In this document: piece by piece, positions 12,095 to 62,140 of the stretch
Position numbering within the stretch: position 1 is the stretch's first letter
Layout: each line of letters begins with the position of its first letter
Assembly: GCA_963843795.1 (NCBI GenBank)
Contig: CAWJLW010000006.1
Span: 2,418,001-2,482,000 of the forward strand
Direction: 5' to 3'
Length of the DNA stretch: 64,000 nucleotides
DNA from: an uncultured bacterium
GTDB lineage: Bacteria; Armatimonadota; Abditibacteriia; Abditibacteriales; Abditibacteriaceae
The notes under the pieces: model-generated
Databases searched by the model: none
Seen by the model: the letters and a program-made list of their open reading frames with translations, nothing else
Told to the model about the DNA's origin: nothing
Translations under genes and position numbers: made by a program

Positions 12095-12129
12095 CGTGCT
12101 GCAAGTACTGCGCAGGTACTTGCAGCACG
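12095..12129. terminator. Hairpin with doubled core between convergent genes
   Basis: CGTGCTGCAAGTACTGCGCAGGTACTTGCAGCACG, 2 nt after the stop at 12092. Confidence 0.65.
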
Positions 12130-12152
12130 AATTTGGTTTCAACCGTTGATGC

Positions 12153-14471
12153 TTAGACACTTCCGACAATTTCGTAAAGCTGCCGACAAAATTCGCCGCG
12201 CGTCGAGCTGTTGACTTCAGCCAAATTCGGTTCTGGCTTTTTTAAACGCGCGGCGGCACGCTTCACCCACAGCTTCATCGTCGCCACATCCAAGTTTTCT
12301 GCGGGCGAAAAAACACTGGCATTGTCAATGATTTTTTCGTGCAACAGCGATTGCACCGCGAGATATTCAGGATGATCGCCACGTACATCAGCGAAAGTCG
12401 CATTTCCAATGAATGGCTTTAAATTGGGCTTTTGCATTTGCAACCATTGCCACAACCATTGCGCGGCCTGCGCACGCGTGAGGGTTTCATCGGGCTGTGC
12501 CTGGTAAGTGGGGAAAAAGCCGCGCGCGCCGAACCATTGCAGCGCTTGCCAATCGGGATGTTCGAGCGGCACATCGTTAAAAACGCAAATTACGTGTTGC
12601 TGTTTCAACAGTTCGCGCTGTAATTCCGATTCGCTGATTTGAGAAGGCAAAACTCCGCGCTGCAATGCCAGATGCGCTGCTGTGCCCGCTGTTGTACCCA
12701 GTGACATAAAAACCGGCTCCATGCGCAGCGTGCCGTAGCCGATATGAGTGCACGAAACGCATACGCTGACCAGAACGCCTTCGACGCCGCGCGGCGTCAT
12801 TACGCGATAAGGCACCTGCGAAGGCCGCGTTTGCGTGCCGGGGAGATAGAAAAATCCTTCCAGCAAACCCTCTCGTTCGGGCGAAGTGCCGTGCGAATCA
12901 ATCGGATAATCGGCTACTGCGATGCTATCGGTGTGAAAGTTAGGCCGATACTCGGGGTCGAGCGATTGCGCATCGTTTTGCGTGAACAGATAATCGCCCT
13001 CAATGCGCCGCCCTTCACGCACATAAAGCTGTGTCGGGAAGCGTCCGTTGTCCACAAATTCATCGTAAGCGAAACCCCATTTCAAAGCTTCTTCACGAAA
13101 CGATTCCGGCACTTCACTATCGTGCTGCACAAAGTAAAGCAATCCCAAAACGTGCTCGCGATGCGCTTTGGCAATATTTTCGCGCGCCCACAAATCGGCT
13201 TCGGGATAATTATCACTGCCACCGATAAGATCGCTTGATGGGTTGCCAAGAGGATGATTATTGGCGTCGAACTTGTCTTCGGGAAGGGGCAAAATGCTCA
13301 GCACCTGCTCCATATTTTTGACTCGCCCGCTGGCGATATCTGGCAACAACGTAACATAGCGTTCGCGGTCATAGCGCGTGGGCGCAGGAAACGGCAGCAA
13401 GTTTTCGGGATTGTTCGTCAGGCACAAACGATAATTATAGGCCTGCACTTTACGATCGCCCGCGCCGCTGCCGAAGACCACTTTGCGCGCTACCGGCTCC
13501 CAGAAAAGTTCGCCCGCGTGCTGTTCGCCGAACTCGCCACGACTTTCGCGCCCGATGCGGTAAGCTGCTCCCGCCTGCGCTGCCACATCCCCTTCATAAG
13601 TCGCGTCGATGAAGATTTTGGCTTGCAGGGTTTTGCGAATCATGCGCGGACGGTCGAGAACGTACAGCGCCGTGACACGATTGCCCACTTTCACTACATC
13701 GCGCGGATAATGGTCGAGCAACACTGTGATATTGGGCTGCTCGGCCAACAGTTCCGAGAAAATCCATTTTGCAACGCGCGGCTCGAAATAATAGCCGTTG
13801 CGACTGGCCTTGAGCTGCAGTGAATCAGGGCCATATTTTTTTGTGTAATAAGCGCGCGCGCGGTCGGTGAACTCTTTGAACAAGCCACCCGCCGATTTCA
13901 TCGAACCGAAATCGGTGCGGCTCAAACCGCCGGTCATCATGCCGCCAATCCATGGGCCGGGCGAAATCAGGGCGACTTTATCACCCAGACGCGCGGCGGT
14001 CAGAGCTGCCGCGATTCCACCCGGCGTCGCGCCCACAACTACGATATCAAATTTTTCAGTCGTGCGCGAATCGCTTTCGTTGGGCAACTTCGTGATGTCG
14101 GCCACGCTCGGCGAGCGCGCTTCCGTTTCGCCCCAACGCGCGGCCACATTGTAAAACTGCACGCTGTAAGGCGGCAAATTTTGGTCGCGAAATTCGCGCG
14201 CAGTCGGCGGCAAATCAACGACGAATTCGCCGTTACGGTAAATCCGAAAACCACTAAAATCTGCGCGTCCGCTGGCTTCCCCCGTCATCTGCCATTGCAA
14301 TACCAGAGACGACTTTGAAACTGCGTTCAAGCTCGTGATAAAAGGCGCAACCGGCTCAGTTGGCACTTCGACAGCTTGCATTTCGGCTGGCGTATGGATT
14401 TCCTGAGCGCGAATTTTGGCTGGCGCGACCGACGCGCACAGCACAAGTAAAACGAAGAACAGTTTCTTCAC
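12153..14471 (-). CDS. Secreted FAD-dependent oxidoreductase with N-terminal FN3-like and C-terminal SLH-like domains
   Basis: Signal peptide (KKLFFVLLVLCASVAPA), DIVVVGATPGGIAAA, FIDATYEGD, YVREGRR, GTLRMEP; C-terminal FNDVPLEHP/FADVRGDHP SLH-like motifs. Confidence 0.85.
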   Translation of the reverse strand: MKKLFFVLLVLCASVAPAKIRAQEIHTPAEMQAVEVPTEPVAPFITSLNAVSKSSLVLQWQMTGEASGRADFSGFRIYRNGEFVVDLPPTAREFRDQNLPPYSVQFYNVAARWGETEARSPSVADITKLPNESDSRTTEKFDIVVVGATPGGIAAALTAARLGDKVALISPGPWIGGMMTGGLSRTDFGSMKSAGGLFKEFTDRARAYYTKKYGPDSLQLKASRNGYYFEPRVAKWIFSELLAEQPNITVLLDHYPRDVVKVGNRVTALYVLDRPRMIRKTLQAKIFIDATYEGDVAAQAGAAYRIGRESRGEFGEQHAGELFWEPVARKVVFGSGAGDRKVQAYNYRLCLTNNPENLLPFPAPTRYDRERYVTLLPDIASGRVKNMEQVLSILPLPEDKFDANNHPLGNPSSDLIGGSDNYPEADLWARENIAKAHREHVLGLLYFVQHDSEVPESFREEALKWGFAYDEFVDNGRFPTQLYVREGRRIEGDYLFTQNDAQSLDPEYRPNFHTDSIAVADYPIDSHGTSPEREGLLEGFFYLPGTQTRPSQVPYRVMTPRGVEGVLVSVCVSCTHIGYGTLRMEPVFMSLGTTAGTAAHLALQRGVLPSQISESELQRELLKQQHVICVFNDVPLEHPDWQALQWFGARGFFPTYQAQPDETLTRAQAAQWLWQWLQMQKPNLKPFIGNATFADVRGDHPEYLAVQSLLHEKIIDNASVFSPAENLDVATMKLWVKRAAARLKKPEPNLAEVNSSTRGEFCRQLYEIVGSV

Positions 14472-14557
14472 GATGAATGTCCCATTGAATTTCAACAACA
14501 AAATTCTCTCCTGCAAGTACTTGCAGCAGCGCATTTAAAGGGCAACAATTTTCAAGG

Positions 14558-15526
14558 CTAGAATTTCGGTGCGCTGCTTGTCTTCTGCAATGTCGTCGTG
14601 AAACTTTGCGCGGCTGCCTGTCCGATCCCACTGCCCAATGCTTCACCAAAACTGGCAGCACCATTCTGAAGCGCAACTCCCAAACCGTTGCCTCCAAACA
14701 AACCGCCGCTTTCGATTTCGTCGGCTACAATGTCTCCAGTTAAGCCAGCAGTAGCGCCCGCATCTTGAACCGCGTCATAGAGACCACCTATTTTATCGAC
14801 CAGCATCACGTCGCGCGCCTGCGTGCCGGTGTAAACACGGCCATCGGCCAGCTTCAAAAGCTTTTCGCGCGTCAGTTTTCCACCAGTCGCATTTTTGCGA
14901 CCCGCCACAATATCATCGACGAACTGCTGATAAATCACACCAATCATGCGTTGAAAAAGTGCGCGTTCTTCGGGGGTCAATTTTCGGGATGGATTGCCAG
15001 CGTCCTTAAATTTGCCGCTTTTAATCGTCGCTTCATCCAAACCGACTTTGCGAAACAGTTCCTGATAATTCATGAACTGGGAAATCACGCCAATCGAACC
15101 AGTCATCGTCGCGGGATTGGCGTAAATTTTATCGCAAGCGCTGGCGACATAGTATCCACCCGAGGCCGCCACATCTCCCATCGAAGCGTAAACAGGCTTC
15201 ACTTTGCGCGCACGCATCACGGCAGCATACATTTCCTGCGACGCCGCTGCGGAACCGCCTGGCGAGTTGATGCGAATCACAATCGCTTTAGCGGTAGGGT
15301 CATCGGTCGCTTTTTTTAGATCGCTCATAAAACGGCGCGTGCCCGCGATCGCGCCGCCCAACAAACCCCCGCCACCGCCATCGGCAATCGCGCCCGAAAG
15401 CGAAACCACCGCCACGCGCGAACCGACCATGCCACCAGTTGCGCTCATGGCAACAAGGCCGATAACGAACAAACCTACAAAAGCGGCTAAGACCCAACGC
15501 CACGAGACCCCACGAGATTCTTTCAT
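14558..15526 (-). CDS. sppA: Signal peptide peptidase SppA (short form, S49)
   Basis: IRINSPGGS, VAASGGYYVA, TGSIGV, KSGKFKD, ADGRVYTG. Confidence 0.92.
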   Translation of the reverse strand: MKESRGVSWRWVLAAFVGLFVIGLVAMSATGGMVGSRVAVVSLSGAIADGGGGGLLGGAIAGTRRFMSDLKKATDDPTAKAIVIRINSPGGSAAASQEMYAAVMRARKVKPVYASMGDVAASGGYYVASACDKIYANPATMTGSIGVISQFMNYQELFRKVGLDEATIKSGKFKDAGNPSRKLTPEERALFQRMIGVIYQQFVDDIVAGRKNATGGKLTREKLLKLADGRVYTGTQARDVMLVDKIGGLYDAVQDAGATAGLTGDIVADEIESGGLFGGNGLGVALQNGAASFGEALGSGIGQAAAQSFTTTLQKTSSAPKF

Positions 15527-15748
15527 TTCATTTTTCTCCCTGCCTTGAAGTATGCCGTCGGGAAGCTTGGCGTTCCCAATGATTGCTGATAATCGTGCTG
15601 CAAGTACTCGCAACCAGCTTTGCTGCGTTGTGCAGGCTGCAAGTCAACGATCTCCTGACGACACAAAAGCACTTGGCGCAAAAATATTCAATTTACGGAG
15701 ATAAGAATACCTTGCTGCAAGTACTTGCAGCAGGGCGCATCGATAGAC

Positions 15749-15792
15749 AAACGACAACGCTCCTCGCCAATTGGCAAGGAGCGTTGTCGTTT
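15749..15792 (-). terminator. Intrinsic terminator after the SLH porin gene (no iterated core; a core-centred hairpin follows at 15710-15734)
   Basis: AAACGACAACGCTCCT...AGGAGCGTTGTCGTTT. Confidence 0.75.
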
Positions 15793-15816
15793 TAAGACGT
15801 TTTGTAGCTGGCTGGT

Positions 15817-17760
15817 TTAGAAGCCAACGTTGGCACCAACGCGGACGTACTGCACGCTGTCCGCAGGGCCGTAAATGCCATAGTGGCCATACTTGACTTC
15901 CAGGTCGAGACCCGGAGACACGTTGAAGGTGGAGCCAATTGTGTAAACGGCACCCAAATCCAGCGAGTTGATCTGACCGCCGGGAGCCAACTGGCTGCCG
16001 TAGGCTTTGTAGTAACGGAAGTCGAGCGGCAAGCGACGAATCAAACGCAAGGTGCCAGTGAAGTCAAAGACTTTCTTGGCAGCAGCGTAGGTCGGCACAC
16101 CAGCAACAATGGCACCGCCCGGTCCAAAGGCGCGACCGTTGACCATCGGAGCACCCAACGCCATCGGACGGTCGAACAACGCTTCGGCGTATGTGCGAGC
16201 GAACGGGTTGGCCGAAGACGCTGCGAAATATTCGAAGTCGTTGTCAGCTTTGCCATAAGCGAAGTTGGCATCCAACACGCGAGTGCGCAGCAACGGCACC
16301 GTGATGTTGTATGCATTGGGCTTGCTCGGAGCGCTGTAGTCAGCATAGTTCCGTTGACGCACGTATTCGACACCAATCGTACGGTTGAACAATGGAATCG
16401 TCAAGTCGAGCGAATCGCCCTGCTGATTCTGCACGCCGTCGAACAAACGCGTCACACCAATGCTGACCGGTTGGCCAGCGATGCGGAACAGGTTGAAACC
16501 AATGCGAGCGGCGGCTTCGTTGTCATCCACATACGGCTGCGCGGGAGTGCCAAAGAAACCAACGGCTGCGCCCGAGCTGGTGGCGTTCGGATTGCCATTG
16601 AAGAAAGCGCGGTTCGGGTCACCAGAAACGCCCATGTAACGAACAGCACCGGTGGTCAAATACGGATTGCCACCGCCACCAGTCGCCTGCTGGTTGTTGT
16701 TGGAGCCGATGAAGGCGCTCAACTGCAACGGGCCAAGACCGAAGTCGGCACGCACTTGGTCGGTCGGCGCGAGGTCGTTGTCATACAACAAGCCCTGCGC
16801 GATTTTGGTGGGCTGACGGCCCAAGATGAGGTTCAAGCCCTTAATGCCGATGAACGAACGGTCGCTCAAGTCGGCAACGGCATAAGCTTCACGAACGTAG
16901 ACGTTGGAGCCACTGTCGCCAGCCCATGCATCTTCGTTGGTGCCGCCCAAGGAACGCAATGCGCCGACAACGCTCAAACGATCGGTGACGCGGTCGGTCA
17001 AACGCAATTCAAAGTCGGTGTACGAATACTTCTCGTTCGACAAACGCTCGGACTGCTTAGGAAAGAATCTGAACGGGCTGGAGTTCAGCTGGCTTCCTGG
17101 TACCGTGAACGAACCGTTGCGCACGATATTGCGACCCGGAATGACGGGGCCGCCGCCGGTTTGCGCTGCGGGAATGCCAACCTGCGAGATGTAGGTGGCA
17201 GTGCCGGTGCGATGCAAGAAGGACGGGGTGACCGTCATGCGCGGCGGCTTGGCTACACGATTTTCCAGATCGCCCACGCGAGCTTCCAGAGCGTCGGTGC
17301 GAACACCCAAACGAGCCAACTCGTCCTGGAATTCACGGCGCAGCGAGTTGATCAAGTCATTGACTTCGTCGCGGGTGATGCCATTGTTGTTACCGGCGGT
17401 ACCGGCCGGACCTTGAGCGCCAGCGGGACCGGCGGGGCCTTGAGCACCAGCGGGACCGGCGGGGCCAGCGGGGCCAGCCTGAGCATCGCCAATACGCTCG
17501 AGCAAACGGGCGATAGCGACTGCGAATTCGTAGCGGGTCATCGGCTTGTTGCCGTAGTAGTTGCCGTTGGGCAAGCCTTCGATGATACCGGCTTGGCTCA
17601 ACTTGTTGATGGCCTCATAGGCCCAGTGGCCGCGAGGAACATCGGGATACTCTGCAACTGCGGTCTGCGCGTGCGCAACCGAAGTCAACTGCGGAGCCAC
17701 GATGGCCGGCACTGCCGCAAACAATGCGAGAGCGGAACCGGCTAAAACTTTACGCTTCAT
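15817..17760 (-). CDS. SLH-domain outer-membrane protein (OmpM/SlpA-like: SLH, collagen-like linker, coiled coil, beta-barrel)
   Basis: Signal peptide, YPDVPRGHWAYEAI...MTRYEFAVAIARL, Gly-X-Y run, LRREFQDELARLGVR coiled coil, C-terminal Phe (VGANVGF). Confidence 0.88.
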   Translation of the reverse strand: MKRKVLAGSALALFAAVPAIVAPQLTSVAHAQTAVAEYPDVPRGHWAYEAINKLSQAGIIEGLPNGNYYGNKPMTRYEFAVAIARLLERIGDAQAGPAGPAGPAGAQGPAGPAGAQGPAGTAGNNNGITRDEVNDLINSLRREFQDELARLGVRTDALEARVGDLENRVAKPPRMTVTPSFLHRTGTATYISQVGIPAAQTGGGPVIPGRNIVRNGSFTVPGSQLNSSPFRFFPKQSERLSNEKYSYTDFELRLTDRVTDRLSVVGALRSLGGTNEDAWAGDSGSNVYVREAYAVADLSDRSFIGIKGLNLILGRQPTKIAQGLLYDNDLAPTDQVRADFGLGPLQLSAFIGSNNNQQATGGGGNPYLTTGAVRYMGVSGDPNRAFFNGNPNATSSGAAVGFFGTPAQPYVDDNEAAARIGFNLFRIAGQPVSIGVTRLFDGVQNQQGDSLDLTIPLFNRTIGVEYVRQRNYADYSAPSKPNAYNITVPLLRTRVLDANFAYGKADNDFEYFAASSANPFARTYAEALFDRPMALGAPMVNGRAFGPGGAIVAGVPTYAAAKKVFDFTGTLRLIRRLPLDFRYYKAYGSQLAPGGQINSLDLGAVYTIGSTFNVSPGLDLEVKYGHYGIYGPADSVQYVRVGANVGF

Positions 17761-18453
17761 AAATGGAATCTCCTGTCTGGGCTTTCGCCCCGGGCTTTTC
17801 GCCCTAAACACAAAACGACAATCGGTTCATTTCCCGCTCGACAACAGCGTTCCTATGAACAGCCGCAGTGACAAATTCACTGCGGTCGAGCAACATCGGG
17901 CCAACAAAACTCACTTTCCATAATCGAGAAAACTCGATGATGCGCTGCAAGTACTTGCGGGGTGTTCACCTTTCGATTGCTTTGGGTTTGGATGTTTATC
18001 TTTTCCCGGAGACAAGAGTTTCCACGTTTCCTCTGCTCGTCTGGAATGGTTCACATTTTCAACCTGCCACAACTTGGGGCGACTTTCCAAAAATCAGTGG
18101 CCCACCTCGATTGAAACCTTTGCAAAAACAAATATTTCAAACGCTGATTTTCGTCTCATCATTATATCACGAGAACCTGTTCTGTAAAGGCGTAAAGAAA
18201 AAAATTCTCAGCTTTTTCGACCAAAGCTCACTTTTGAGCGCTTTTACTACGAACTCAAATGTTTGCGCTGCTTGCGAAAATGCCGACCGGCACGCTAGAT
18301 TTTCGCCTTGTTCTTTCGTGATTGCGCGCGTCGACGGCAAATTAAAGTCCAAGTTCTAAATGAAATCCCCAAACACGAAGATTTCTCGTTTTGATTGGTG
18401 GGAACAGTGATAACTTTTGCGTTATCCAAGAAAGCGCATTCACCACCAACGCG

Positions 18454-18487
18454 AAAAGCCTGTTGCAAGTACTTGCAGCAGGCTTTT
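18454..18487. terminator. Core-centred hairpin with A/T tails downstream of the CDS ending at 18500
   Basis: AAAAGCCTGTTGCAAGTACTTGCAGCAGGCTTTT. Confidence 0.75.
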
Positions 18488-18499
18488 ACGACACCCCAA

Positions 18500-21058
18500 T
18501 TAATTGGTGGACGGATTCACTGGAGCAACTTTCTTTTTCACAGTGACTTCGCTAATCAGCAAGTTCTGCTTGGAGCCGAAGGCATTCACCACGAAATCGG
18601 AGCCGTTGACGTTACCGAACGAGGCATCGGGAATTTCAAACTCGTAATTAACCCAGCCGTTACCGCTTTCGACCAATTGCCACGAAGTCGCGCGTGTTCC
18701 GGTCGGACTGTTGTATTCGATTTTGAAACCCGAATTGGCCGCGCCCGGCGTTTTGGCCACGCGCACCGTAACAGTTACGGGAATACCCTTTTCGAAAAAT
18801 AGAAAATCGTCGGAAACATCGAAAAATAGATACGGCTTGCCATCTGCGGGCCGCAAAATACTGGGCGGAATCTGCGCGGTCAAAGCGGCTTCTCCATCAA
18901 CGACGCGGGTTTCGGTCGCCTGTCCACGAAATTCTTGATACTTGCGCCACTGCAAACCGTTTTCGATACCATTGTCACCAAAGGTTGCGCGCGCCACAAT
19001 TTTATCGGTCGAGCGCGGAACGGGTCGCGTGAGCGCCAAATATTGCTCGCCCATTTCTTTCCAGTTATCTTTGGCTTTTTGCACCGTGTCGATAGCGACT
19101 TTGGTAATCCAGACCGGGCTTTGACTCAGTTTCAGTGCGCCATCGCTGCCGCCCAAAGCTTCGCCCATAGAACTCAGCACCGTCGAATCGGCCCGCGTTT
19201 TCAACCACTGCGCGTCCGACACCTGTGGGTCGGATTCGCTATTTAAAGCCAACTGGCCTTTGCCCGAAGGCGACCAGGCCACGACGTGGCCGACATCGCC
19301 ATCATCGAAGGCCAGCGCCACGACATCTGGCCCGGTCGAAAGCGGCCCGACAAATTTGAATTTTGGGTCACCAATCAAACGCGTCAATGTTTGCATCGCC
19401 GCATACGATGGACGCGGCACGTTATCACGGCGTACTAATCCGCTGCCCCATTCGGGATTGATTGGCTCGACGGTTTCATACATGGGCTCGTCGCGCAAGC
19501 GTCCCCAGAAAACTTTATCCGCACCCTGAGCCAATCCCAGCACGGCAGTGCGCAACAGGTAATCGGCCTGCGATTGCGGAGTAAAGGTCTTGGTCAGCGT
19601 GTCGCGGCGTTCCTCACTAACTTTAACGAACTGATCGCCTTCGGGCCGCGCCGCGCCGTTACCTTCCAGTGCCGGCCACCATAAACCACCCAGCCAAATG
19701 TCGCGGCCCAGCAACAGCTGATCTTGATAAGTGCTGAGAGGTAGCACCAATTCTTCTGAGGCCACTGGAATGCCAGGCTGCCACTGCGAAGCGGGATAAA
19801 TTGCCACGCCATCCAAACCACTCAGAGCCATGTCGTTTTTCAATCCGCGTAAAAACGTTAGATTGATGCCACCAGGATCAGCAGCATGAATAATGGCTTT
19901 AGGATCGACGCCGCGCGCGGCCTGAAGCGCTGTTTTGGTTAGCTCTTGATAGAACTTAAACGATGAAGCGCGAAACTTCCACGAAATTGGCTGATCCCAC
20001 ACTTGCCACGCTTGCACGTCCTGACCGAAATGAGCGACTGTGCGCTCGACGTAATTGCCAAACGCAGGTACTTTATCGCTGGCGGGCACATTGAAGCGCC
20101 ATTCCATCGGAATCGTGGAACGGCTTTGGGAAGCCCACTGCGCTGAATCGCCCAGAATGCCGACAACTAATAAATCGCGTTTGCGTGCTTCTTGCACCAC
20201 GGTGTCATACAGCGAAAAATCGAAGCTGCCGGTTGCCGTGGGCTGAATTGTATTCCAATCAAAACGCGTTTGAATCGTATCAACGCCCGCTTGACGCGCT
20301 AAATCGAGCAATGGCCCGACCTGCGCGGCATCTAGGCCGGTAAAATCGACGCCAACGCCAAAATGGCGCGAAGCGTTGAGAGCGGCGCGGTGGTTGGCAA
20401 AGTTTATTGGCGACAAATCGGTCGAGATCAAAACCGTTTTATTGGCATTATCCCATTCGACGCGATAGCCGAAGGTTTCGACTAAAGAACGCAGTGGCAC
20501 ATAAACCGATTGGCCGATGCGTTGAGGCGCGGTCGAAAGTTCCAGCGACTGTGTGCCCACGGACGCGCCTTTTTGGCCGACGCGCAGCACATAAATTTTC
20601 CCGCTCTGTCGCACTTCAATTTTCTGCTCGGCAGCGGTGTAATCAACGCGAGCGCTGAGCTTTTCCAGCACGCCGCGCAACGGCACCAGAACCGAACCGG
20701 CTTTGGTGAGAACCGGTGGCGGCGTGACTTCGGTCGCTTCGCCATTAATTTTGATGCTGACTTTGGTCTTACTCAAAACCACGGGCGGCGTAGCAATTGT
20801 CGCTGTTGGGGTGCTTTGCGCCCACACGCGCGGAGCGCTGCTCAGAGCGAAAGTGGCGCTCATTAGCACGAAACCGCTCAAAAGCGGTTTGCGGCTATAT
20901 TGGATGAAACGATGGGGAAAGGGAGAGGGCGGAACTGTGGTTGGAGAAACAGTGGAGCGACGAAGCGACGGGCTGTTTAATGGGCTGTGATGAAATGGCA
21001 CGATGAAAAACCTTCCTCTGATGGAACTTTTTTGCGGCTTTTTGAGCCAGCATGGCAT
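18500..21058 (-). CDS. Secreted protein: copper-amine-oxidase N-terminal (stalk) domain plus clan GH-A-like TIM barrel; true start uncertain and probably downstream of 21058
   Basis: VLVPLRGVLE / VYVPLRSLVETFGYRVEWD (CAO-N), RFDWNTIQP...FDFSLYDTVV (GH5/GH39/GH42-like). Confidence 0.75.
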   Translation of the reverse strand: MPCWLKKPQKSSIRGRFFIVPFHHSPLNSPSLRRSTVSPTTVPPSPFPHRFIQYSRKPLLSGFVLMSATFALSSAPRVWAQSTPTATIATPPVVLSKTKVSIKINGEATEVTPPPVLTKAGSVLVPLRGVLEKLSARVDYTAAEQKIEVRQSGKIYVLRVGQKGASVGTQSLELSTAPQRIGQSVYVPLRSLVETFGYRVEWDNANKTVLISTDLSPINFANHRAALNASRHFGVGVDFTGLDAAQVGPLLDLARQAGVDTIQTRFDWNTIQPTATGSFDFSLYDTVVQEARKRDLLVVGILGDSAQWASQSRSTIPMEWRFNVPASDKVPAFGNYVERTVAHFGQDVQAWQVWDQPISWKFRASSFKFYQELTKTALQAARGVDPKAIIHAADPGGINLTFLRGLKNDMALSGLDGVAIYPASQWQPGIPVASEELVLPLSTYQDQLLLGRDIWLGGLWWPALEGNGAARPEGDQFVKVSEERRDTLTKTFTPQSQADYLLRTAVLGLAQGADKVFWGRLRDEPMYETVEPINPEWGSGLVRRDNVPRPSYAAMQTLTRLIGDPKFKFVGPLSTGPDVVALAFDDGDVGHVVAWSPSGKGQLALNSESDPQVSDAQWLKTRADSTVLSSMGEALGGSDGALKLSQSPVWITKVAIDTVQKAKDNWKEMGEQYLALTRPVPRSTDKIVARATFGDNGIENGLQWRKYQEFRGQATETRVVDGEAALTAQIPPSILRPADGKPYLFFDVSDDFLFFEKGIPVTVTVRVAKTPGAANSGFKIEYNSPTGTRATSWQLVESGNGWVNYEFEIPDASFGNVNGSDFVVNAFGSKQNLLISEVTVKKKVAPVNPSTN

Positions 21059-21225
21059 TTGCGTTTACCGAATCGGCAACTATGCAAACAAACCGAGCCA
21101 GTCAAAAGTTGCGGACGCCCAAATTCTAATGCGTCTCGAAAACACATTTGAGAGGCAAAAAAGTGTCACCGAAAATAATTGATGCACTTTGCGACGGCCA
21201 AACAATCGCGTGCGTTCGATAGAAA

Positions 21226-53628: not shown

Positions 53629-53711
53629 AGAATTTAGGTCCCGAATGCAGTGCAATAATTATGACGTATTCTTGCCCTGCAAGTACTTGCCAAACAAATT
53701 GAACAGAAAAT

Positions 53712-54668
53712 ATGACAGCAACCCGACACATTGAAATTTTAGATACGCACACTGGCGGCGAACCGACGCGCATCGTCGTCGCGGGCGCGCCCGATTTGGG
53801 TAGTGGAACCATCGCGGAACGCGCACAAACTTTTCGCGAAAAGTTTGACGGTTTTCGCAGTTGTGTAGTCAACGAGCCGCGCGGTAGCGATGTGATGGTG
53901 GGCGCGCTTTTGTTGGAGCCGCACGATAAAACGTGCACCGTGGGCGTAATTTTTTTCAATAATGTCGGCGTTCTGGGAATGTGCGGACATGGCAGCATCG
54001 GCGTCGGTGTGGCACTGCAATTTTTGGGGCGCGCGCAAAGTGGGCTGCATCGTGTGGAAACTCCGGTCGGAAATGTCGAAATCGACCTGCAAAGCGAGCA
54101 TCGTGTGGCCGTCGAAAACGTGCCGTCCTACCGTTTTCGCCGTGCCGTGACGGTTGAAGTCGAAGAATACGGCACAGTAACCGGCGACATCGCGTGGGGC
54201 GGCAACTGGTTTTTCTTGGTCGGCCAACACCAAGAACGCGTGGCGGAAGATAATATCGCGCGCCTGACCGAGGTTTCGCTGCGCATTCGACGGGCGTTGG
54301 AAGCGCAAAATATCAGCGGGCGCGATGGCGGCGTTATCGACCATATCGAACTGTTCTCCGTGCCGACGACCGAAGGTGCGAACTCGAAAAATTTCGTCTT
54401 GTGCCCAGGCGCAGCTTATGATCGTTCGCCATGCGGAACCGGTACTAGCGCGAAAATTGCCTGTTTGGCAGCAGATGGCAAATTGGCGCCGGGCGAAACT
54501 TGGGTGCAGGAATCCGTTATCGGCAGCACCTTTGAAGCTTCCTATCAAAATACCAGCGAGCCAGATATTATCGTGCCAAAAATCGTCGGCAGTGCGTGGA
54601 TCATGGGACAGGGCACATTAATCGTTCAAGAGGGTGACCCGTTCGCTGAAGGAATTCGCTTGAAATAG
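53712..54668 (+). CDS. Proline racemase family enzyme, probably 4-hydroxyproline 2-epimerase
   Basis: DTHTGGEPTR; both catalytic Cys present (GMCGHG, DRSPCGTG). Confidence 0.92.
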   Translation: MTATRHIEILDTHTGGEPTRIVVAGAPDLGSGTIAERAQTFREKFDGFRSCVVNEPRGSDVMVGALLLEPHDKTCTVGVIFFNNVGVLGMCGHGSIGVGVALQFLGRAQSGLHRVETPVGNVEIDLQSEHRVAVENVPSYRFRRAVTVEVEEYGTVTGDIAWGGNWFFLVGQHQERVAEDNIARLTEVSLRIRRALEAQNISGRDGGVIDHIELFSVPTTEGANSKNFVLCPGAAYDRSPCGTGTSAKIACLAADGKLAPGETWVQESVIGSTFEASYQNTSEPDIIVPKIVGSAWIMGQGTLIVQEGDPFAEGIRLK

Positions 54669-54680
54669 CGAAAACAGCGG

Positions 54681-54712
54681 AATCAGCAGCGCAAGTACCT
54701 GCATTGCTGATT
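54681..54712. terminator. Hairpin with a variant core between convergent genes
   Basis: AATCAGCAGCGCAAGTACCTGCATTGCTGATT. Confidence 0.6.
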
Positions 54713-54740
54713 TGCATTTACGCGTCAGGGTCGCCCTCTT

Positions 54741-55697
54741 TTAAACATCCGACATTGCGTGCAATGTTTCCCAGAAATTCGCGTCGTAGGTTTGTTGCCA
54801 TAAGCCGCGCACTTGTCCCAACAAATAACGCCGCCTGTTTACGTTATAACTGGCAAATTGTGCGGCATCGCCCGCCAAATCATCCTCGTGCTCGACATCA
54901 AAAGCTGTTTGCAACGTTTGATTGAGCACGGTGCGATCTTGCATTTCGCCCAGCACATCCTGCAATTCGACCAGAATTTTCACCGCCGCTTTGACTTTGC
55001 CATCATACGCCGGAGCGAAAGCTTCCAGTGTATAGCGCGTGCGGCGCAGCGCTTTGCGCAGTTCGTGCTGCCCGGTTTCATTAGCGCCTTCATCCAAGGT
55101 TTGGCCCAAAGCAAGCGAGGCTTCGATGCGGCTTTGCAAAATAAGGCGCGCGGCTTCGCGCAGCGAAATTTCATCTTCCGACAAACCGGCTACGCCAGCC
55201 AGACTTGCCCCCCAAATCCGAAATTCGCTGCGCAATTTTTTTGGGCGTCGGTCTTTTTTAAGGCGGCGCGCTAAAATCTTGAATTCATCGGCGCGCTCGT
55301 CCCGCAAATACTTGCGGAAACTTTGCAATTCTTCGGACGCGTCGAGATTCAGATTTTCGCGTGCGGCAAACTCATTCAGATACTCTTCGAGAACATCAAA
55401 GTCGCGCACCGCGCCCATGATATCGCCCAATTTTCCCAAATCGCTGCGGTGCGCTTTGATTTGCTTGACGATGTCGCGCGACAGCCACGCGCGCGCCTGC
55501 GGCTCCTGATAATTTTCCAGACACGAGCGCAAACGTCGCAGCGCAACGCGCATATCGTGCAAGGCTTCGGCATCGCCCGCAAGTACTTGCGCGTGGTGCG
55601 ACCACGCTTTATCCCACAAACTCATGCTGAGCAGGCTCGCGCCCAGCAAAAACGGTTTGTCCGGCTTAATTCCAGCATCGCCCGCAATATCCGCCAT
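54741..55697 (-). CDS. CHAD domain (polyphosphate-binding) protein
   Basis: EALHDMRVALRRLRS, GAVRDFDV, HELRKALRRTRYTLE, LQDVLGEMQD. Confidence 0.9.
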   Translation of the reverse strand: MADIAGDAGIKPDKPFLLGASLLSMSLWDKAWSHHAQVLAGDAEALHDMRVALRRLRSCLENYQEPQARAWLSRDIVKQIKAHRSDLGKLGDIMGAVRDFDVLEEYLNEFAARENLNLDASEELQSFRKYLRDERADEFKILARRLKKDRRPKKLRSEFRIWGASLAGVAGLSEDEISLREAARLILQSRIEASLALGQTLDEGANETGQHELRKALRRTRYTLEAFAPAYDGKVKAAVKILVELQDVLGEMQDRTVLNQTLQTAFDVEHEDDLAGDAAQFASYNVNRRRYLLGQVRGLWQQTYDANFWETLHAMSDV

Positions 55698-55821
55698 AAA
55701 TTTCTCTACCTCTGGGTTCAATCGTGCGCAAAGTGCGCACCGAGTCCAATCACGACGAATGACAGGTTTAAACGCGCCATGAGATAGACTTTGATTTCCA
55801 ATTTCCAGAGCGGTTTTTCTC

Positions 55822-58800
55822 ATGTCAACACCCAATCTATCCGAACAACCCGGCGCTTCAACACCCAATCCGCAACGCAAACTTTTGTTGCGGGGAATTT
55901 TTGCCATTGCAATTATCGCGATCGCGGCGATAGGAACGATGTGGCGGCGCGCCAATGTTTTGCCAACTCCGGGCACGCCCGAATACACCAAAATGGTACG
56001 CGCGTTTTATACCGGCGTCATCGCGATGCAAGTCGGCGATGACGAGCGCGCCGCGCGTAATCTCAAAAATGCCATCACAATCGTGCCGCCCGAACCCGCC
56101 GCGCACGCCGATTTAGGTGTTCTGGCGCTGCGCGCGCGCGATTTTCCGACAGCTAAAACTAATCTCGACAAAGCGCGCGAACTGGCGCCCAACAACTCCG
56201 AAATCGAAGCGCTTTTGGGCGCTCTGGAAAAAGAACAGGGCAATTTCGACGGCGCGGTTTCGCATCTCAAACGCGCCATCGAACTTGATGGCAACAATCT
56301 GCGCGCTCGTTATGCATTGACCAAAATCATCGCGCAAATCGGAGCGGCGGACGCCGATGCGCAAGTTAAAACTCAGCTCGATGCGATTCTAAAAACGCAG
56401 CCCAATAATTTGGCCGCTCTTCTGGATGCGGCGCGTTTGTCGGCCAAAACCAACGATGCGGCCACGCTGAAAGACGTACTGGCAAAGCTAAGTGCTAACA
56501 GCGGCGGTTGGAGCGCCGAAGCGCGCGAACAATTGCAGGAATTGCAGGCGGCGCCGATTAATCAGGCCACGACGCCCGCGATTTATCTGGCGAACCTGCT
56601 GCGCGCGCTGCCCGAATATCAAAGCGCGCTGCAAGTACTTGCACCAGCGGGCAACGCCGTCGCCGACCCAATCGAGAACTTTCTCGTTCTGCAAATTCCG
56701 TCCTCGCAACCCGCGCCGCCCGATAGCGCGCTGGCTTTCACGGCCAAGAACGTGATGACCAGCGCAAATTCGCAATATGAAGGTGCCCGCGCTTTGATTG
56801 CCGACGAAAAAAGCGTGCCGCTCGCAGTGTTCAACGACCTCAAAACCGTGCAGATTTTCAGCGAACCCAAACCAGTTTCACTGCCGTTCACTGGCACAAA
56901 AACCCTGGCGGTTTTGGATTGGAACGCCGATTTTCAAAACGATTTGCTGGCGGCTGGCGCGCAAGGCTTGAAATTCTGGCAAAACAACGACGGAAAATTC
57001 ACCGATGTGAGCGCACAAACCAAGCTGCCCTCGCAAGTACTTGCGGGCACTTATCAAAACACATGGGTTGCCGACATCGAAGCCGATGGCGATTTGGACA
57101 TCGTTCTCAACCCCACCAATGGCGCGCCACTCGAACTACGCAACAATGGTGATGGCAGTTGGCAAACCCAACCAATTTTCGCTTCAATTGCTGGAATCAA
57201 CGCTTTTATTTGGTCGGATTTCGACAATGATAACGACAACGACGCGGCGCTGCTTGATAGTGCGGGCACGTTGCATTTTTTCACCAATAATCGTTCGGGA
57301 CAGTTCAGCGAGCGCACCGACATGGCAAAAATCGGTGCAGCTTTGGCTCTGGCAGTCAGCGATTTAAACAGCGACGGTATTTTCGATTTGTTGGTGTGGC
57401 AACGAGATGGCGCGCTTTTGCGTTTGTGGCTCGAGGATGACAAATGGCAGCAACAGGTGCTGGGCAAATTCGCCGTCGAGGGGCAATTCACTGTCGCGCG
57501 CTTGCTGTGCGCCGATTTCGATAACAATGGTGCGCCCGATATTTTGGCGAGCGCCGACAATCAAACCCAAATCTGGCTGGGCGCTGGTGGCACCGATCTC
57601 AGCCCGCCGCTGAAGGTTGCGGGCGCAGTTTTCGATGTCGCGGACCTGAACAAAGATGGCCGTCTTGATTTGCTCGGCGTAGAAAACGGCAAGGCGACGC
57701 AGTGGATTAGCGCGGGCACGAAGAATTATCACTGGCAGGAGTTGCGCGCGCGCGCCAAGCAAACCCAGGGCGATGGACGCATCAATTCGTTCGGCATCGG
57801 CGGTGAAATGGAATTGCGCGTTGGCACGATTTACCAAAAACGGATGATTGCGGCGCCGACCGTTCATTTCGGATTGGGCGAAAACACGGCATCTGATGCG
57901 CTGCGTTTGACGTGGCCTAATGGCGACGCGCAAGGCGAATTTGAACTCAAAGCCGATCAAACCATTGTCGCCGAACAACGCTTGACCGGCTCATGTCCGT
58001 ATCTGTTTGTGTGGGATGGAACGCAAATGCGCTTTGTCAAAGATGTCAACTGGCGTTCTCCACTGGGATTGAAAATCAATTCGCAAGACACAGCGGGTAT
58101 TGTGCAAACCGAAGATTGGGCGCACATTCGCGGCGACCAGATGCAAGCCAAAGAAGGCAAATACGATTTGCGCATCACGGCGGATTTGTGGGAAGCGCAT
58201 TATTTCGATACTGTGCAATTGCTCAGCGTCGATCATCCGAAAAATACGCGCGTCTGGGTTGATGAACGCTTTTCGGTTCCGATGCCTCCGCTGCGGGTTT
58301 TAACGACGACAATAGACCAACCTTTAGCGCAAGTATTGGATACACAAAAGCGCGATGTGCGCGCGAAAGTGCGCGACTTGGACGCGGAATATCTCGATTG
58401 CGGGCGCGGCCAATATCAGGGCGTGACGCGCGATCATTGGATCGAAGGTGAACTGCCCGAATCTGCGCCGCGCGACAACAAACTGTGGCTCATCGCACAA
58501 GGCTGGCTGCATCCGACCGATTCTTCGGTCAATGTGGCTCTGGCGCAAAATGGCATCGTGCCGCAGGATTTGAGCCTTGAAGTCGCCGATGGACACGGCG
58601 GTTGGCACGTGGCCCAAGCGCATTTGGGCTTTCCTGCAGGAAAAAACAAAGCGATTACAATTGATCTCAGTCGCGCGTTTGTGGCCAATGCGCCGCGACG
58701 TTTTCGCTTGCGCACCAATCTGGAAATCTATTGGGACAAAATTTCGTGGGCGCTTGAGTTGGATAATTCCAAAACTAAAATCCAGCGTTCGCTCCCGGAA

Positions 58801-59286
58801 ACGGCGCAATTGCGTTATCGCGGTTTCTCGAAAATCGTGGCAAAAAATGCCGCATCGCCGGAATTGCCGACTTCGTATCGACCCGATGCCGGTACGATGG
58901 CGCGCTGGCACGATTTGCCGGGCTTTTACACGCGCTTTGGAGATGTGCGCCCGCTGTTGGAGCGCATTGATGATCGCTACGTTATTATGAACGCGGGCGA
59001 CGAAATGCGCTTGCAATTTGTCGACCCCCCCGCACCAGCCAACGGACAAACGCGTGATTGGATTTTCATCAGCGATGGCTGGACAAAGGATGGCAATTTG
59101 AACACGACATTTTCGCAAACGCTGCTACCTTTGCCAGCGCACAATTTGGCGCAAACCAATGTGCCGCCGACGACGTTGCAAAACGATCCGGTTTACCGAA
59201 AACATCGTGACGATTGGCGCGATTATCACACGCGCTGGATCGATAATCAAAAGTTTCAGGGCGCTCTTCGTGCGGGCTTAAATTGA
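55822..59286 (+). CDS. Membrane-anchored TPR + FG-GAP/VCBS repeat + ASPIC/UnbV-domain protein with C-terminal SCPYLF domain
   Basis: N-terminal TM helix, TPR helices, repeated DxNxDGxxD motifs, VHFGLG, GSCPYLFVWDG. Confidence 0.85.
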   Translation: MSTPNLSEQPGASTPNPQRKLLLRGIFAIAIIAIAAIGTMWRRANVLPTPGTPEYTKMVRAFYTGVIAMQVGDDERAARNLKNAITIVPPEPAAHADLGVLALRARDFPTAKTNLDKARELAPNNSEIEALLGALEKEQGNFDGAVSHLKRAIELDGNNLRARYALTKIIAQIGAADADAQVKTQLDAILKTQPNNLAALLDAARLSAKTNDAATLKDVLAKLSANSGGWSAEAREQLQELQAAPINQATTPAIYLANLLRALPEYQSALQVLAPAGNAVADPIENFLVLQIPSSQPAPPDSALAFTAKNVMTSANSQYEGARALIADEKSVPLAVFNDLKTVQIFSEPKPVSLPFTGTKTLAVLDWNADFQNDLLAAGAQGLKFWQNNDGKFTDVSAQTKLPSQVLAGTYQNTWVADIEADGDLDIVLNPTNGAPLELRNNGDGSWQTQPIFASIAGINAFIWSDFDNDNDNDAALLDSAGTLHFFTNNRSGQFSERTDMAKIGAALALAVSDLNSDGIFDLLVWQRDGALLRLWLEDDKWQQQVLGKFAVEGQFTVARLLCADFDNNGAPDILASADNQTQIWLGAGGTDLSPPLKVAGAVFDVADLNKDGRLDLLGVENGKATQWISAGTKNYHWQELRARAKQTQGDGRINSFGIGGEMELRVGTIYQKRMIAAPTVHFGLGENTASDALRLTWPNGDAQGEFELKADQTIVAEQRLTGSCPYLFVWDGTQMRFVKDVNWRSPLGLKINSQDTAGIVQTEDWAHIRGDQMQAKEGKYDLRITADLWEAHYFDTVQLLSVDHPKNTRVWVDERFSVPMPPLRVLTTTIDQPLAQVLDTQKRDVRAKVRDLDAEYLDCGRGQYQGVTRDHWIEGELPESAPRDNKLWLIAQGWLHPTDSSVNVALAQNGIVPQDLSLEVADGHGGWHVAQAHLGFPAGKNKAITIDLSRAFVANAPRRFRLRTNLEIYWDKISWALELDNSKTKIQRSLPETAQLRYRGFSKIVAKNAASPELPTSYRPDAGTMARWHDLPGFYTRFGDVRPLLERIDDRYVIMNAGDEMRLQFVDPPAPANGQTRDWIFISDGWTKDGNLNTTFSQTLLPLPAHNLAQTNVPPTTLQNDPVYRKHRDDWRDYHTRWIDNQKFQGALRAGLN

Positions 59287-59378
59287 TTCCTGCAGGTACT
59301 TGCAGGTGAGAAAATCGCGCGAAATGGGTATAAAAAACTAGCTGCAAGTACTTGCAGCCTGCTGGCAGCACACATATT

Positions 59379-61196
59379 ATGTCGAATTCTCGCTCTCGCC
59401 TTCCACAAATTATCGCCACTGTTATCTTTGGCGCACTCATCACAGTGCCCATTGTTCTCCAACGTCGCCAGAACACGCAAACCCCCAGCGCGCCCGACCA
59501 GAGCGGCGCGTTGAAACGATACGGTTTTTCACTGACCGAAGCCTCGCAAAAAGCGGGCATCGACTTTAAACATCAGGCACCGAAGCTGGATGCCAAACTT
59601 GACCATATCATGCCTCAAGTCGCTTCGATGGGCGCAGGCGTGGCGATTGGCGACTTCGACCGCGACGGTTGGGACGATATTTATCTCACCAATTCGGCGC
59701 AAAATTCTCTCAACCGTTTGTATCGCAACCGGGGTGATGGCACCTTTGAAGACGTCGCGGGCGCGCTGGGCGTAGCAGACGTGAACCGTTTCGACGGCGA
59801 TTCCAAAGGCACGTCAATGGGCGCCGTGTGGGGCGATTACGACAACGATGGCTGGGAAGACTTGCTGATTTACAAGTGGGGCAAACCGGAATTATTTCAC
59901 AACGATGCGGGCAAAAAGTTTTCGCGCGCAACTGAGACTTCTGGCCTGCCGAACTGGGTGAACGCCAACAACGCCATCTGGTTCGATTACGACCGCGACG
60001 GCAAATTGGATATTTTCATTGGCGGCTACTACGCCGAAAACGTCAATTTATGGAAGCTGACTACGACGCGCATCATGCCCGACAGTTTGGAATACGCGCG
60101 CAACGGCACCCGCAAGTACTTGCTGCACGGAATGGGCAACGGCAAATTCGAAGATGTGACGCAGAAAATGGGCTTGGACAGCAAAAGCTGGACGTTGGCT
60201 GCAGTCGCGGCGGATTTGCGCGGCACGGGCTATCCCGATTTATTCATCGCTAACGATTACGGTGTAGCCGAATTGTGGGCCAATCAAGGTGGCAAAAAAT
60301 TCGTCAATATCGGCAAAGATAGCGGCGTCGGATATGCGCCCAAAAGTGGCATGAACGCTGCGGTTGGCGACGTGATGAACAACGGGAATTTGGCAGTTTA
60401 TGTGTCGAATATCTCCGAGCCAGGCGTTTTATTGCAGGGCAATAACTTGTGGATGCCGAATCCGGGCACCAAAGGCAACGGAGTCAAATATCAAAATCTG
60501 GCGCACGAAATGGGCGTGGAAGATGGCGGTTGGAGCTTTGGCGCGCAGTTCGGAGACTTGAACAACGACGGCCATTTGGATTTATTTTTGGCCAACGGCT
60601 ACGTTTCGGGCGACAAATCGAGCTACTGGTATGATTATTCGAAAGTTGCGGGCGGTAATAGTTCAATTATTTCTGACGCCGCAAACTGGCCGCCGATGAA
60701 CAATCGGAATTTGTCTGGCAATCAGGCCAAACATTTATGGATTAACGATGGAAACGGCAATTTCACCGAAGTCGCGCAAGCCGTCGGCGCAACCGACCGT
60801 TTCGATGGCCGCGCGGTGGCTTTGGCCGATTTCAGAAATAACGGCGCATTAGACATCGTAGAATCGAATCAGCGTGGGCCGTTGCAATTGTATCGCAACA
60901 CGGTGGCCGATGGTCGCGATTGGATTGAATTCGCGCTCGAGGGTGCTCAAAGCAATCGCAGCGCGATTGGTGCGCAAATCGTTATCAATTGGAAAAACGC
61001 GCAGGGCGAACAACAACAGAAACAGGAAATTAGCGGCGGCAGCGGATTTTGCGCGCAAAACTCGCGACGTATACATTTCGGCTTGGGCAAAAACGCAAAA
61101 ATCGAGAAAATTCAAATCCGCTGGCCTTTGGGACAAACGCAAAACGTGGAGGCGATGGCCGTAAATCAACTGCACAAAATCAAGGAAACGCTATGA
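59379..61196 (+). CDS. CRTAC1/ASPIC-UnbV family FG-GAP repeat protein
   Basis: GAGVAIGDFDRDG, several DxDxDG motifs, SNRSAIGA, RIHFGLG. Confidence 0.88.
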   Translation: MSNSRSRLPQIIATVIFGALITVPIVLQRRQNTQTPSAPDQSGALKRYGFSLTEASQKAGIDFKHQAPKLDAKLDHIMPQVASMGAGVAIGDFDRDGWDDIYLTNSAQNSLNRLYRNRGDGTFEDVAGALGVADVNRFDGDSKGTSMGAVWGDYDNDGWEDLLIYKWGKPELFHNDAGKKFSRATETSGLPNWVNANNAIWFDYDRDGKLDIFIGGYYAENVNLWKLTTTRIMPDSLEYARNGTRKYLLHGMGNGKFEDVTQKMGLDSKSWTLAAVAADLRGTGYPDLFIANDYGVAELWANQGGKKFVNIGKDSGVGYAPKSGMNAAVGDVMNNGNLAVYVSNISEPGVLLQGNNLWMPNPGTKGNGVKYQNLAHEMGVEDGGWSFGAQFGDLNNDGHLDLFLANGYVSGDKSSYWYDYSKVAGGNSSIISDAANWPPMNNRNLSGNQAKHLWINDGNGNFTEVAQAVGATDRFDGRAVALADFRNNGALDIVESNQRGPLQLYRNTVADGRDWIEFALEGAQSNRSAIGAQIVINWKNAQGEQQQKQEISGGSGFCAQNSRRIHFGLGKNAKIEKIQIRWPLGQTQNVEAMAVNQLHKIKETL

Positions 61197-62080
61197 AATC
61201 TCCCGCATTGACCGCGCCGGTGGGCGCTGCTCAAAACGAAAACGCATCACCACGACGTTTTAAAATCGACGAACGTTATGTGGCGCCGGTTTTAATCACC
61301 TGCATTTTGTTGGGTGCGCAACTGAATTTTGGCGTGCTGGAAAGTTTTCCGCACACGCTTTTAGCGATTGCGACTTCGATTATCGCGGAGATTTTCTTCA
61401 GCAAGCTGCTGCGCGGAACGTGGCCGCATCTGGCGAGCGCTTATATTTCCGGTATCAGCGTGGGAATTTTGGTCCGCTCGACCGATTTCTGGCCTTATGC
61501 GCTGTGTGCGGCGATTGCGGTGGCTTCGAAATACGTAATTCGCGTCAAAGGCCGCCACATCTGGAATCCATCGAACTTCGCGATTTCGATCATGTTGCTG
61601 ATAGCACCTGCTGCGGTTGCGACTTTGAGCGTGCAGTGGGACAATCGTTTGTGGGCGATGCTGGCGATCTGGGCGTTGGGTTCGGTCATCATCTTGCGTT
61701 TGAAACGGTTTCATATCTGCGCGGCTTATGTGCTGTCATTTTTGGCTTTCGCGGGTTTGCGTAGCCTGATTACCGGGCACAGTTTGGAATCGGAAATTGC
61801 ACCGATCACCGGGCCGATGTATCAGTTGTTCATCTTCTTCATGATTACCGACCCGAAAACCACCGTCGGCAGCAAACGCGCGCAAATCATGGTGGCGATT
61901 GGCGTGGCGGCGATGGAAATGGTGCTGCGCTTGAACCAAAACATTCACGCGCCTTATTACGCATTATTCATCGTCGGCCCGATTGCCAACCTGCTGGAAA
62001 TTTGGAATCGTGAACGCAACGCGAAAAAGCTGGAGGTGCGCTCTGAAGCGATTGTCGAAACGGCTCCGCTCGCGCGTTGA
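61193..62080 (+). CDS. RnfD/NqrB-fold membrane protein (UnbU-like)
   Basis: ATGA overlap with the upstream gene; ASAYISG, SKYVIRVKGRHIWNPSNF, LFIFFMITDPKT. Confidence 0.82.
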   Translation: MKSPALTAPVGAAQNENASPRRFKIDERYVAPVLITCILLGAQLNFGVLESFPHTLLAIATSIIAEIFFSKLLRGTWPHLASAYISGISVGILVRSTDFWPYALCAAIAVASKYVIRVKGRHIWNPSNFAISIMLLIAPAAVATLSVQWDNRLWAMLAIWALGSVIILRLKRFHICAAYVLSFLAFAGLRSLITGHSLESEIAPITGPMYQLFIFFMITDPKTTVGSKRAQIMVAIGVAAMEMVLRLNQNIHAPYYALFIVGPIANLLEIWNRERNAKKLEVRSEAIVETAPLAR

Positions 62081-62088
62081 AATTCAAT

Positions 62089-62140
62089 AAAACGTAAAAA
62101 CGCCCTCTGCAAGTACTTGCAGAGGGCGTTTTTACGTTTT
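62089..62140. terminator. 52-bp perfect palindrome centred on the core, between convergent genes
   Basis: AAAACGTAAAAACGCCCTCTGCAAGT|ACTTGCAGAGGGCGTTTTTACGTTTT. Confidence 0.85.

Follow-up and report, generated by a model that had tools for sequence, protein, structure and literature searches.

Convergent Gene Junctions in the Window

The stretch of DNA analyzed here (the window) comprises 64,000 nucleotides of an uncultured bacterium of the family Abditibacteriaceae and lies on the main contig (C6) of a 4.3-Mb genome, denoted as G000, whose DNA polymerase I shows 64% in a match to a record from Abditibacteriota. Other G numbers denote genomes of relatives, and L numbers denote loci, many of which come from metagenome contigs of related species. 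The features in question are the hairpins between convergent genes in the window, which are built around a 12-letter palindrome, GCAAGTACTTGC, identical to its own reverse complement and referred to as the word, or as the core where its position in a hairpin or gap is meant. The gene caller gave exactly nine convergent junctions in the window, the same nine that the original prediction had listed, and the core or a variant of it lies at the hairpin apex of each, as had been claimed.

As shown in Table 1, six of the junctions are perfect loop-less palindromes of 34–52 bp centred on GCAAGTACTTGC, in agreement with the original prediction, and the other three are variants. RNA folding turns the six perfect junctions into long stems with a GUAC loop, and the folding z-scores range from −5.1 to −11.5 at eight of the nine junctions, with only −1.9 at 54681. 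A GC stem followed by a T run after the gene ends is clear on both strands at six or seven of the nine, where the weak points are the tails at 12095 and 52936 and the stem at 54681. The A/T tails that had been described are present at most junctions, but the T tails at 52936 and 12095 are weak. The window also holds 15 copies of the word with one or two mismatches. No Rfam match was obtained anywhere in the window, and no palindrome variants occurred among the matches listed from the sparse DNA contigs of three runs.

Table 1. Hairpins at the nine convergent junctions and exact copies of the word in the window.
Position	Feature	Flanking genes (strand) or distribution
12095..12129	hairpin, 14-bp arms round 7 nt (degenerate double core), weak tails	HD-domain response regulator (+, ends 12092) / FAD oxidoreductase (−, ends 12153)
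23374..23412	predicted two-way terminator, 17-bp arms, core lengthened by one base	PhyH (+) / pilin-like DUF1559 (−)
28774..28809	perfect 36-bp palindrome, predicted two-way terminator	catalase (+) / TIM-barrel gene (−)
35025..35074	perfect 50-bp palindrome, 7 mirrored bases past the A/T tails	
36948..36985	perfect 38-bp palindrome, predicted two-way terminator	GSDH-like gene (+) / formate-nitrite transporter (−)
49402..49435	perfect 34-bp palindrome, predicted two-way terminator	GH2 glycosidase (+) / DUF6789 gene (−)
52936..52983	perfect 48-bp palindrome that takes up the whole gap; GC stem strong, T tail weak	invasin-domain gene (+) / ThuA (−)
54681..54712	imperfect hairpin on a core with one mismatch, weakest of all nine	proline racemase (+) / CHAD gene (−)
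62089..62140	perfect 52-bp palindrome, predicted two-way terminator	RnfD-like gene (+) / glycosyltransferase 4 gene (−)
5066..62120	exact GCAAGTACTTGC, 32 copies	6 in convergent, 15 in co-directional, 4 in divergent gaps, 7 in genes

Distribution of the Word and of Long Arms in the Genome

G000 carries 2,567 copies of the word (2,563 when counted without overlaps), which is a very high excess, and 71% of the copies are intergenic. Of the 2,563 cores, the convergent gaps contain 295, the co-directional gaps 1,248, and the divergent gaps 267; another 746 lie within genes, and the remaining 7 lie at contig edges. All types of gap are rich in the core, which is held by 281 of 454 convergent, 1112 of 2476 co-directional, and 238 of 452 divergent gaps.

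Perfect arms of at least 14 bp are distributed otherwise. They flank 183/295 convergent, 286/1248 co-directional, 21/267 divergent, and 4/669 gene-interior cores, where shuffling the flanks among sites of the same class gives expectations of 7.5 (maximum 15), 2.8, 0.3, and 0.2, respectively. Within the co-directional gaps, long arms are found at 203 of 687 cores near the upstream stop codon compared to 14 of 119 near the next start codon. It is the long arm, and not the presence of the core, that sets the convergent gaps apart, and the association of the palindromes with convergent and 3' positions, on which the original prediction depended, holds across the genome. The arm lengths peak at 16–19 bp, which is the size of a stem plus a tail. 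A total of 551 perfect palindromes have arms of at least 14 bp; 499 of them are core-centred, and the longest measures 78 bp.

The statement that all convergent junctions have this form is true in the window but does not extend to the genome. Among the 454 convergent gaps, 191 are of the perfect type, and 42 hold a variant or a double core, so that 233 look like those of the window, and nine of nine is luckier than average. A hairpin that lacks the word occupies 56 further gaps. In another 134, no 11-bp hairpin is present, and the last 31 gaps measure less than 15 nt.

Words of the Related Genomes

The family set consists of 27 genomes, of which 7 bear a word and 20 do not. GCAAGTACTTGC itself is present in 0–3 copies in each of 40 relatives. 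The shorter pattern RAGTACTY occurs 2,695–4,371 times in six genomes, 80–117 times in four, and 0–45 times in 17 genomes of two genera, where control patterns occur 60–418 times. The word is spelled CAAAGTACTTTG in G001, TCGAGTACTCGA in G009, G015, and G019, and CGAGTACTCG in G012, and GTAC is the common centre of all spellings. G006 carries 2,412 copies of a non-palindromic word, AGTACGGTCGA, which forms inverted pairs in 11 of the 15 convergent gaps read. The word of G009 appears in both layouts, at a single apex and in pairs.

The slot that holds the palindrome at 35025 follows the gene that ends at 34997, and it can be traced among the relatives through the orthologues of this gene. In G001, the slot contains a perfect 38-bp palindrome built on the G001 word, G006 has an inverted pair of its own word, and the motif-less G007 has a looped terminator-like hairpin with A/T tails and mirrored bases past the tails. 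Four genomes therefore place a terminator-like hairpin after this gene, three with their own word and one without a word. No such hairpin was found in this slot in G012, which has a bare word, or in G009 and G004, which have other repeats. Within genes, 6 of 56 aligned AGTACT sites of G000 coincide with sites of G009, and five of these six bear the flanks of each genome's own word.

Several side observations concern these words. At the G006 loci (L070, L071, and L241–L245), the G006 word stands mostly in inverted pairs, one of which carries a mirrored change in both copies, and it sometimes lies inside longer composite repeats. The tetranucleotide GTAC is not avoided in the motif-less G010 and G021, where the ratio of observed to expected counts, computed here and below on fetched stretches of the relatives, is 0.77–0.78. 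A few loop-less terminator-like palindromes are centred on GAATTC in G010, G021, G023, G006, and G012, with or without a word in the genome. A family of long inverted repeats in metagenome relatives (L084 and L143) has the core in its loop, which suggests that the loops of other hairpin elements also receive the word. One contig of the motif-less G024 (G024:C98) has five RAGTACTY sites in 5 kb, a possible transfer or mis-binning from a word-bearing lineage. Two metagenome contigs without similarity to G000 (L142, 6.2 kb, and L157, 4.7 kb) have the appearance of small mobile elements; their genes include an NlpC/P60 gene and, as judged by eye, a primase-like gene of 801 amino acids, and each has 3–4 AGTACT sites beyond the site by which it was found, most in a G000-type context. 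Six viral contigs have one copy each, and none of them is similar to G000.

Spacing, Flanks, and Predicted Role of the Word

The mean spacing of the word on C6 is 1,578 bp, or about one copy every 1.6 kb, and the spacings are under-dispersed: those of 100–600 bp are scarce (340 against 580 expected), and those of 1,000–2,500 bp are common (1,078 against 741). The density of cores in genes rises from 0.8 to 4.5 per 10 kb with the distance from the nearest intergenic core, and within 200 bp of a gap it is 0.77 per 10 kb when the gap holds a core versus 2.81 when it does not. The length scale on which the word would act, 1–2 kb, follows from this trade-off between copies in gaps and copies in genes.

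The flanks of the cores show a T-rich peak 14–15 bp away from the centre and a second peak, of A/T, near 24 bp; both are found on either side and also in genes and at arm-less sites. Even in genes, T reaches 34–37% at 14–15 bp past the centre, compared to about 10–22% at most neighbouring offsets. In G000, neighbouring cores 17–120 bp apart are in helical phase, with peaks near 21, 30, 40, 51, and 62 bp. This phasing was not seen in G009 (7 pairs) and was not clear in the metagenome loci (68 pairs, Z of 6.5 at 9.6).

Judged from their sequence, the junction palindromes are very probably two-way intrinsic terminators with a captured tag. Whether the job of this tag is DNA uptake is an even call, made by analogy with the DNA uptake sequences (DUS) of Neisseriaceae and the uptake signal sequences (USS) of Pasteurellaceae. 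The original prediction had offered two options, in which either the core nucleates the extension of a palindrome or terminators were selected to embed a word of the DUS/USS kind, and the latter fits best among the readings considered.

In the proposed mechanism, a protein that reads double-stranded GCAAGTACTTGC together with A/T runs about 14 and 24 bp to each side would favour one copy per 1–2 kb. The best form of the word, in which an A run, a GC-rich part, the core, a second GC-rich part, and a T run follow each other, would fold on both strands into a stem of 11 bp that is capped by a GUAC loop and followed by a U tail. Because this best form would itself be terminator-shaped, fully symmetric copies would halt transcription and would survive chiefly downstream of gene ends, between convergent genes most of all, and not within genes. 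Each outer stem would drift on its own, the selection for termination on two strands would keep its pairing, and template switching would mirror the bases past the tails.

A different role for the word is unlikely but deserves the most attention among the alternatives. The terminators would be the same, and the word would be a tag used inside the cell instead of an uptake signal, resembling the highly iterated palindromes (HIPs) of cyanobacteria and serving as a strand signal for repair, a recombination site, or a site of a nucleoid protein, read with or set by a solitary adenine methyltransferase. A self-palindromic word that occurs about once per 1.6 kb, evenly spaced and made by substitution, is what Elhai's model describes (PMC4390886). 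The GTAC shared by the centres of all spellings and the helical phasing of neighbouring cores point in the same direction. A solitary beta-class adenine methyltransferase (L226, G000:C6:2517368-2518135) is present in 21 of the 27 family genomes, including 7/7 word-bearing ones, and in 0/55 sampled genomes outside the family (E 1e-50); it was not found in the other genomes of the class or phylum searched, and a relative is known from Abditibacterium utsteinense. However, the enzyme is also present in 14/20 word-less genomes of the family, its best solved relatives (M.RsrI, CcrM, and others) match with only E 1e-36 or weaker, and G016 and G002 avoid GTAC yet gave no match to this enzyme. The word of G006 is non-palindromic and stands in inverted pairs of the DUS type, and HIP1 is not known to have extended A/T flanks, which also counts against this role. 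No C5 methyltransferase was found in G000 or G012.

Origin of the Arms

Comparison of the 499 long-armed, core-centred palindromes gives 430 distinct halves. The commonest inner arm, AGCGCGCT, begins 53 of the 499 and has 53 different distal continuations, and AGCGCGC is likewise the most frequent flank of cores with short arms and of cores in genes. Pairwise identity of the arms drops to background past the tails (0.29 and 0.26). The uniqueness of the arms at each site, as originally claimed, thus stands for the outer arms, but the inner arm follows a consensus.

Orthologous junctions were compared with metagenome loci of related species, in which 652 genes were called and 429 matched G000 with a median identity of 63%. 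The orthologous gaps often hold core palindromes with different arms. Four two-sided arm changes in 18 pairs separate L090 from L209 (two sequences only; 33/500 shuffles reach this number), L123 and L133 differ by one compensatory two-sided change, and L113 and L116 by a mirrored indel. In several other pairs of metagenome loci, the core is flanked by arms in one species and stands bare in the other. The distinct halves and the compensatory changes between orthologues indicate that the arms arose in place and not as copies of one element, as the original prediction had held, and the genome-wide comparison found no unit that would group the arms into a few conserved families.

The word in genes was written over existing codons by substitution, without net insertion. 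When 69 gene sites of G000 are aligned to the relatives, 39 prove to be shared, and the surroundings contain additional residues at 10 sites and fewer at 8; among 145 gene sites of the relatives, the corresponding numbers are 16 and 17. Residue gaps near gene cores are more frequent than in background windows (4–6%), but they are balanced. A frame bias is evident in the G000 genes, where 549 of 927 occurrences of Gln-Val-Leu are encoded by the core compared to 0.4% expected.

A search for two-way terminator shapes that ignored the motif recovered 288 hairpins with and 134 without a core in G000 and a further 68 in 1.03 Mb of sequence of nine motif-less relatives, so that the comparison of mirrored extensions remains inside the family. 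The median RNA stem is 11 bp in all three groups, and site-specific stems are the usual trait of terminators in this family. Among hairpins with tails of equal length, at least three further mirrored bases occur in 63/169 with a core, 19/49 without a core, and 11/31 from the motif-less relatives, where the nulls are 3–8%. The difference between core and core-less hairpins has a p value of 0.87; over all hairpins, mirrored extension is found in 22% with and 14% without a core (p 0.07). RNA function needs no mirrored bases past the tails, and they are therefore likely to result from copying at the DNA level, by template switching, with or without a core; the process is known from quasi-palindromes (bioRxiv 10.1101/2021.04.15.439925).

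The idea that the core itself nucleates the growth of the arms, whether through nicks repaired by fold-back or through template switches initiated at the core, is very improbable in the light of these figures. It would agree with the 499 of 551 perfect palindromes that are core-centred, with a frequency of mirrored bases past the tails far above chance (37% versus 3%), with the higher frequency of equal tails at cores (p 3e-5), and with tandem double cores at spacings of 10, 12, and 13 bp (10, 46, and 33 pairs), which show local copying. However, core-less terminators and those of word-less relatives extend equally, long arms follow terminator positions and not cores and are rare in genes, the arm lengths cluster at the size of a stem plus a tail, and small GIY-YIG nucleases of the Ssn type are missing from G000, G006, and G012. 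Nucleated extension, one of the two options originally proposed, was therefore rejected as the main cause. The tandem double cores occur in the window at 12095, 22507, 29615, and 38106, and also across the genome; they are often symmetric overall, and 13-bp ones are present in G009.

It is scarcely credible that an element of the REP (repetitive extragenic palindromic) or MITE (miniature inverted-repeat transposable element) kind was copied to gene ends by an HUH transposase and that its arms diverged later, since the shared AGCGCGCT, the composite repeats in G006, and the one Y1 transposase match over the cut-off in G000 are offset by the different distal letters of all 53 arms, the same AGCGCGC around arm-less cores, the absence of net insertion at gene sites, and the partial extent of the Y1 match (model positions 40-119), which has no counterpart in G006. 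An element family of this type was rejected because neither a fixed unit nor an insertion signature was found. The Y1 match has two ordinary single cores within 3.2 kb. A small stand-alone GIY-YIG nuclease (Ssn) was not found in G000, where the matches are only frames of 672 and 450 amino acids.

The original prediction had also held that the retention of long palindromes needs explaining and had proposed a check for sbcCD. The NCBIfam model of sbcD passes its cut-off in G000, and the ATPase-like gene of 1,057 amino acids that follows it is read as SbcC from its sequence; the Pfam family of the SbcD C-terminus was not found in the five genomes searched. Loss of SbcCD as a reason for retention was rejected on the basis of the sbcD match. 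The effect of SbcCD is quoted for inverted repeats of >150–200 bp (PMC4787754), and the palindromes, at 78 bp at most, are too short to demand a special explanation, so that the concern is weak. Loss of Rho was rejected as well, as Rho was found in 5/5 genomes.

Weighing of the Explanation

The explanation that fits best overall is that the junctions are two-way terminators whose apex is an uptake word of the lineage and whose outer symmetry comes from general template switching, which we consider reasonably probable. A number of points weigh against it. The known DUS and USS are not self-palindromic. GTAC is avoided in five of nine motif-less relatives (G007, G014, G016, G017, and G002; observed/expected 0.02–0.23), which suggests methylation or restriction and not uptake. 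The helical phasing of neighbouring cores (324 pairs, Rayleigh Z of 28.6 at 10.5 bp) would suit a protein resident on the chromosome equally. ComEC is present in 27/27 family genomes, equally in the 20 word-less ones, and hence does not discriminate; because both ComEC and the methyltransferase also occur in word-less genomes, they decide nothing between uptake and a HIP-like tag. With regard to the arms, A/T tails of equal length are found in 169 of 288 core hairpins (59%) versus 49 of 134 core-less ones (37%), with 46% in the relatives, and arms of at least 10 bp flank 37 gene-interior cores versus 12 after shuffling (maximum 25). The palindromic core contributes some symmetry, and tips without a loop may undergo mirroring a little more easily. 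Compensatory arm changes are known from only three or four locus pairs, and L082 and L096 differ by a one-sided change at the outer end of an arm. Finally, all gene ends come from our own gene caller, a hexamer model that gave 3,393 genes and 85% coding sequence.

A more far-reaching possibility, which we advance tentatively, is that the Abditibacteriaceae possess an independent system of sequence-specific DNA uptake, the third of its kind, in which the reader is symmetric and a GTAC-centred palindromic signal doubles as a two-way terminator. As part of this possibility, the lineage may have switched between palindromic and non-palindromic dialects and rewritten its genes and terminators each time. 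The cited papers describe uptake sequences in two families of Proteobacteria, and a search of the open-access literature found no publication that deals with the word or with repeats of Abditibacteriota. If the possibility is true, a family in another phylum has several dialects, word-less sisters, and one non-palindromic dialect, and it would be a natural series in which to ask whether words spread by selection or by drive and how readers change their specificity. The arms themselves are ordinary, which removes the most exotic option of the original prediction.

Comparison with Known Systems

DUS and USS are the closest counterparts. They also exceed 1,000 copies, lie about 1.5 kb apart, occur in genes with a frame bias, vary as lineage dialects round a fixed core, and are co-opted into terminator stems of about 11 bp. 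For DUS, a distance of about 1,500 nt and the sufficiency of one copy are described (PMC2397512), as are dialects within the Neisseriaceae (PMC3630211) and 11-bp stems for roughly 55% of the terminators in Neisseria (PMC1852404); the inverted pairs of G006 reproduce the classic layout of DUS. The T-rich, helically phased flanks resemble USS, which consist of a core plus two helically phased T tracts and are co-opted into terminators (PMC3458573); uptake sequences in terminators are also treated in bioRxiv 10.1101/2025.10.24.684340. Unlike these systems, the host here belongs to another phylum, the word of G000 is its own reverse complement, and a single copy forms the tip of a hairpin with A/T flanks on both sides. 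The comparison is one of sequences, and any reader akin to ComP/ComN would be hypothetical.

HIP1 and the alternate HIPs share the short self-palindrome at about one per kb, the origin by substitution, and the lineage alternates (PMC4390886, PMC13756078), and a solitary methyltransferase is present in G000. In contrast to HIPs, the word here is mostly intergenic, has extended flanks, and is captured by terminators, the word of one relative is non-palindromic, and no methyltransferase is tied to the word of G000. Bidirectional intrinsic terminators have the same arrangement of an A run, a GC stem, and a T run between convergent genes, with site-specific stems (PMC1852404), and those with template-switch symmetry also show compensatory changes and mirrored bases beyond the needs of the RNA. 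They differ in that a DNA word here fixes the loop and upper stem, which results in a loop-less DNA palindrome.

G000 differs from REP/RAYT and NTS/Ssn (PMC11893778) in that no fixed unit, insertion signature, cognate full-length HUH enzyme, or small GIY-YIG nuclease was found in it, although hundreds to thousands of short palindromes at gene ends are common to all of them.

Some stretches of G000 are free of the core. The two longest, of about 26 kb each (G000:C6:56016-82501 and 517686-543435), are likely recent arrivals, and the latter has a GC content of 49% and a methyltransferase-like gene. At the left end of the window, an open frame of 2,697 amino acids on the minus strand runs off the end (start to 4820), and the surrounding 9 kb contain no core.

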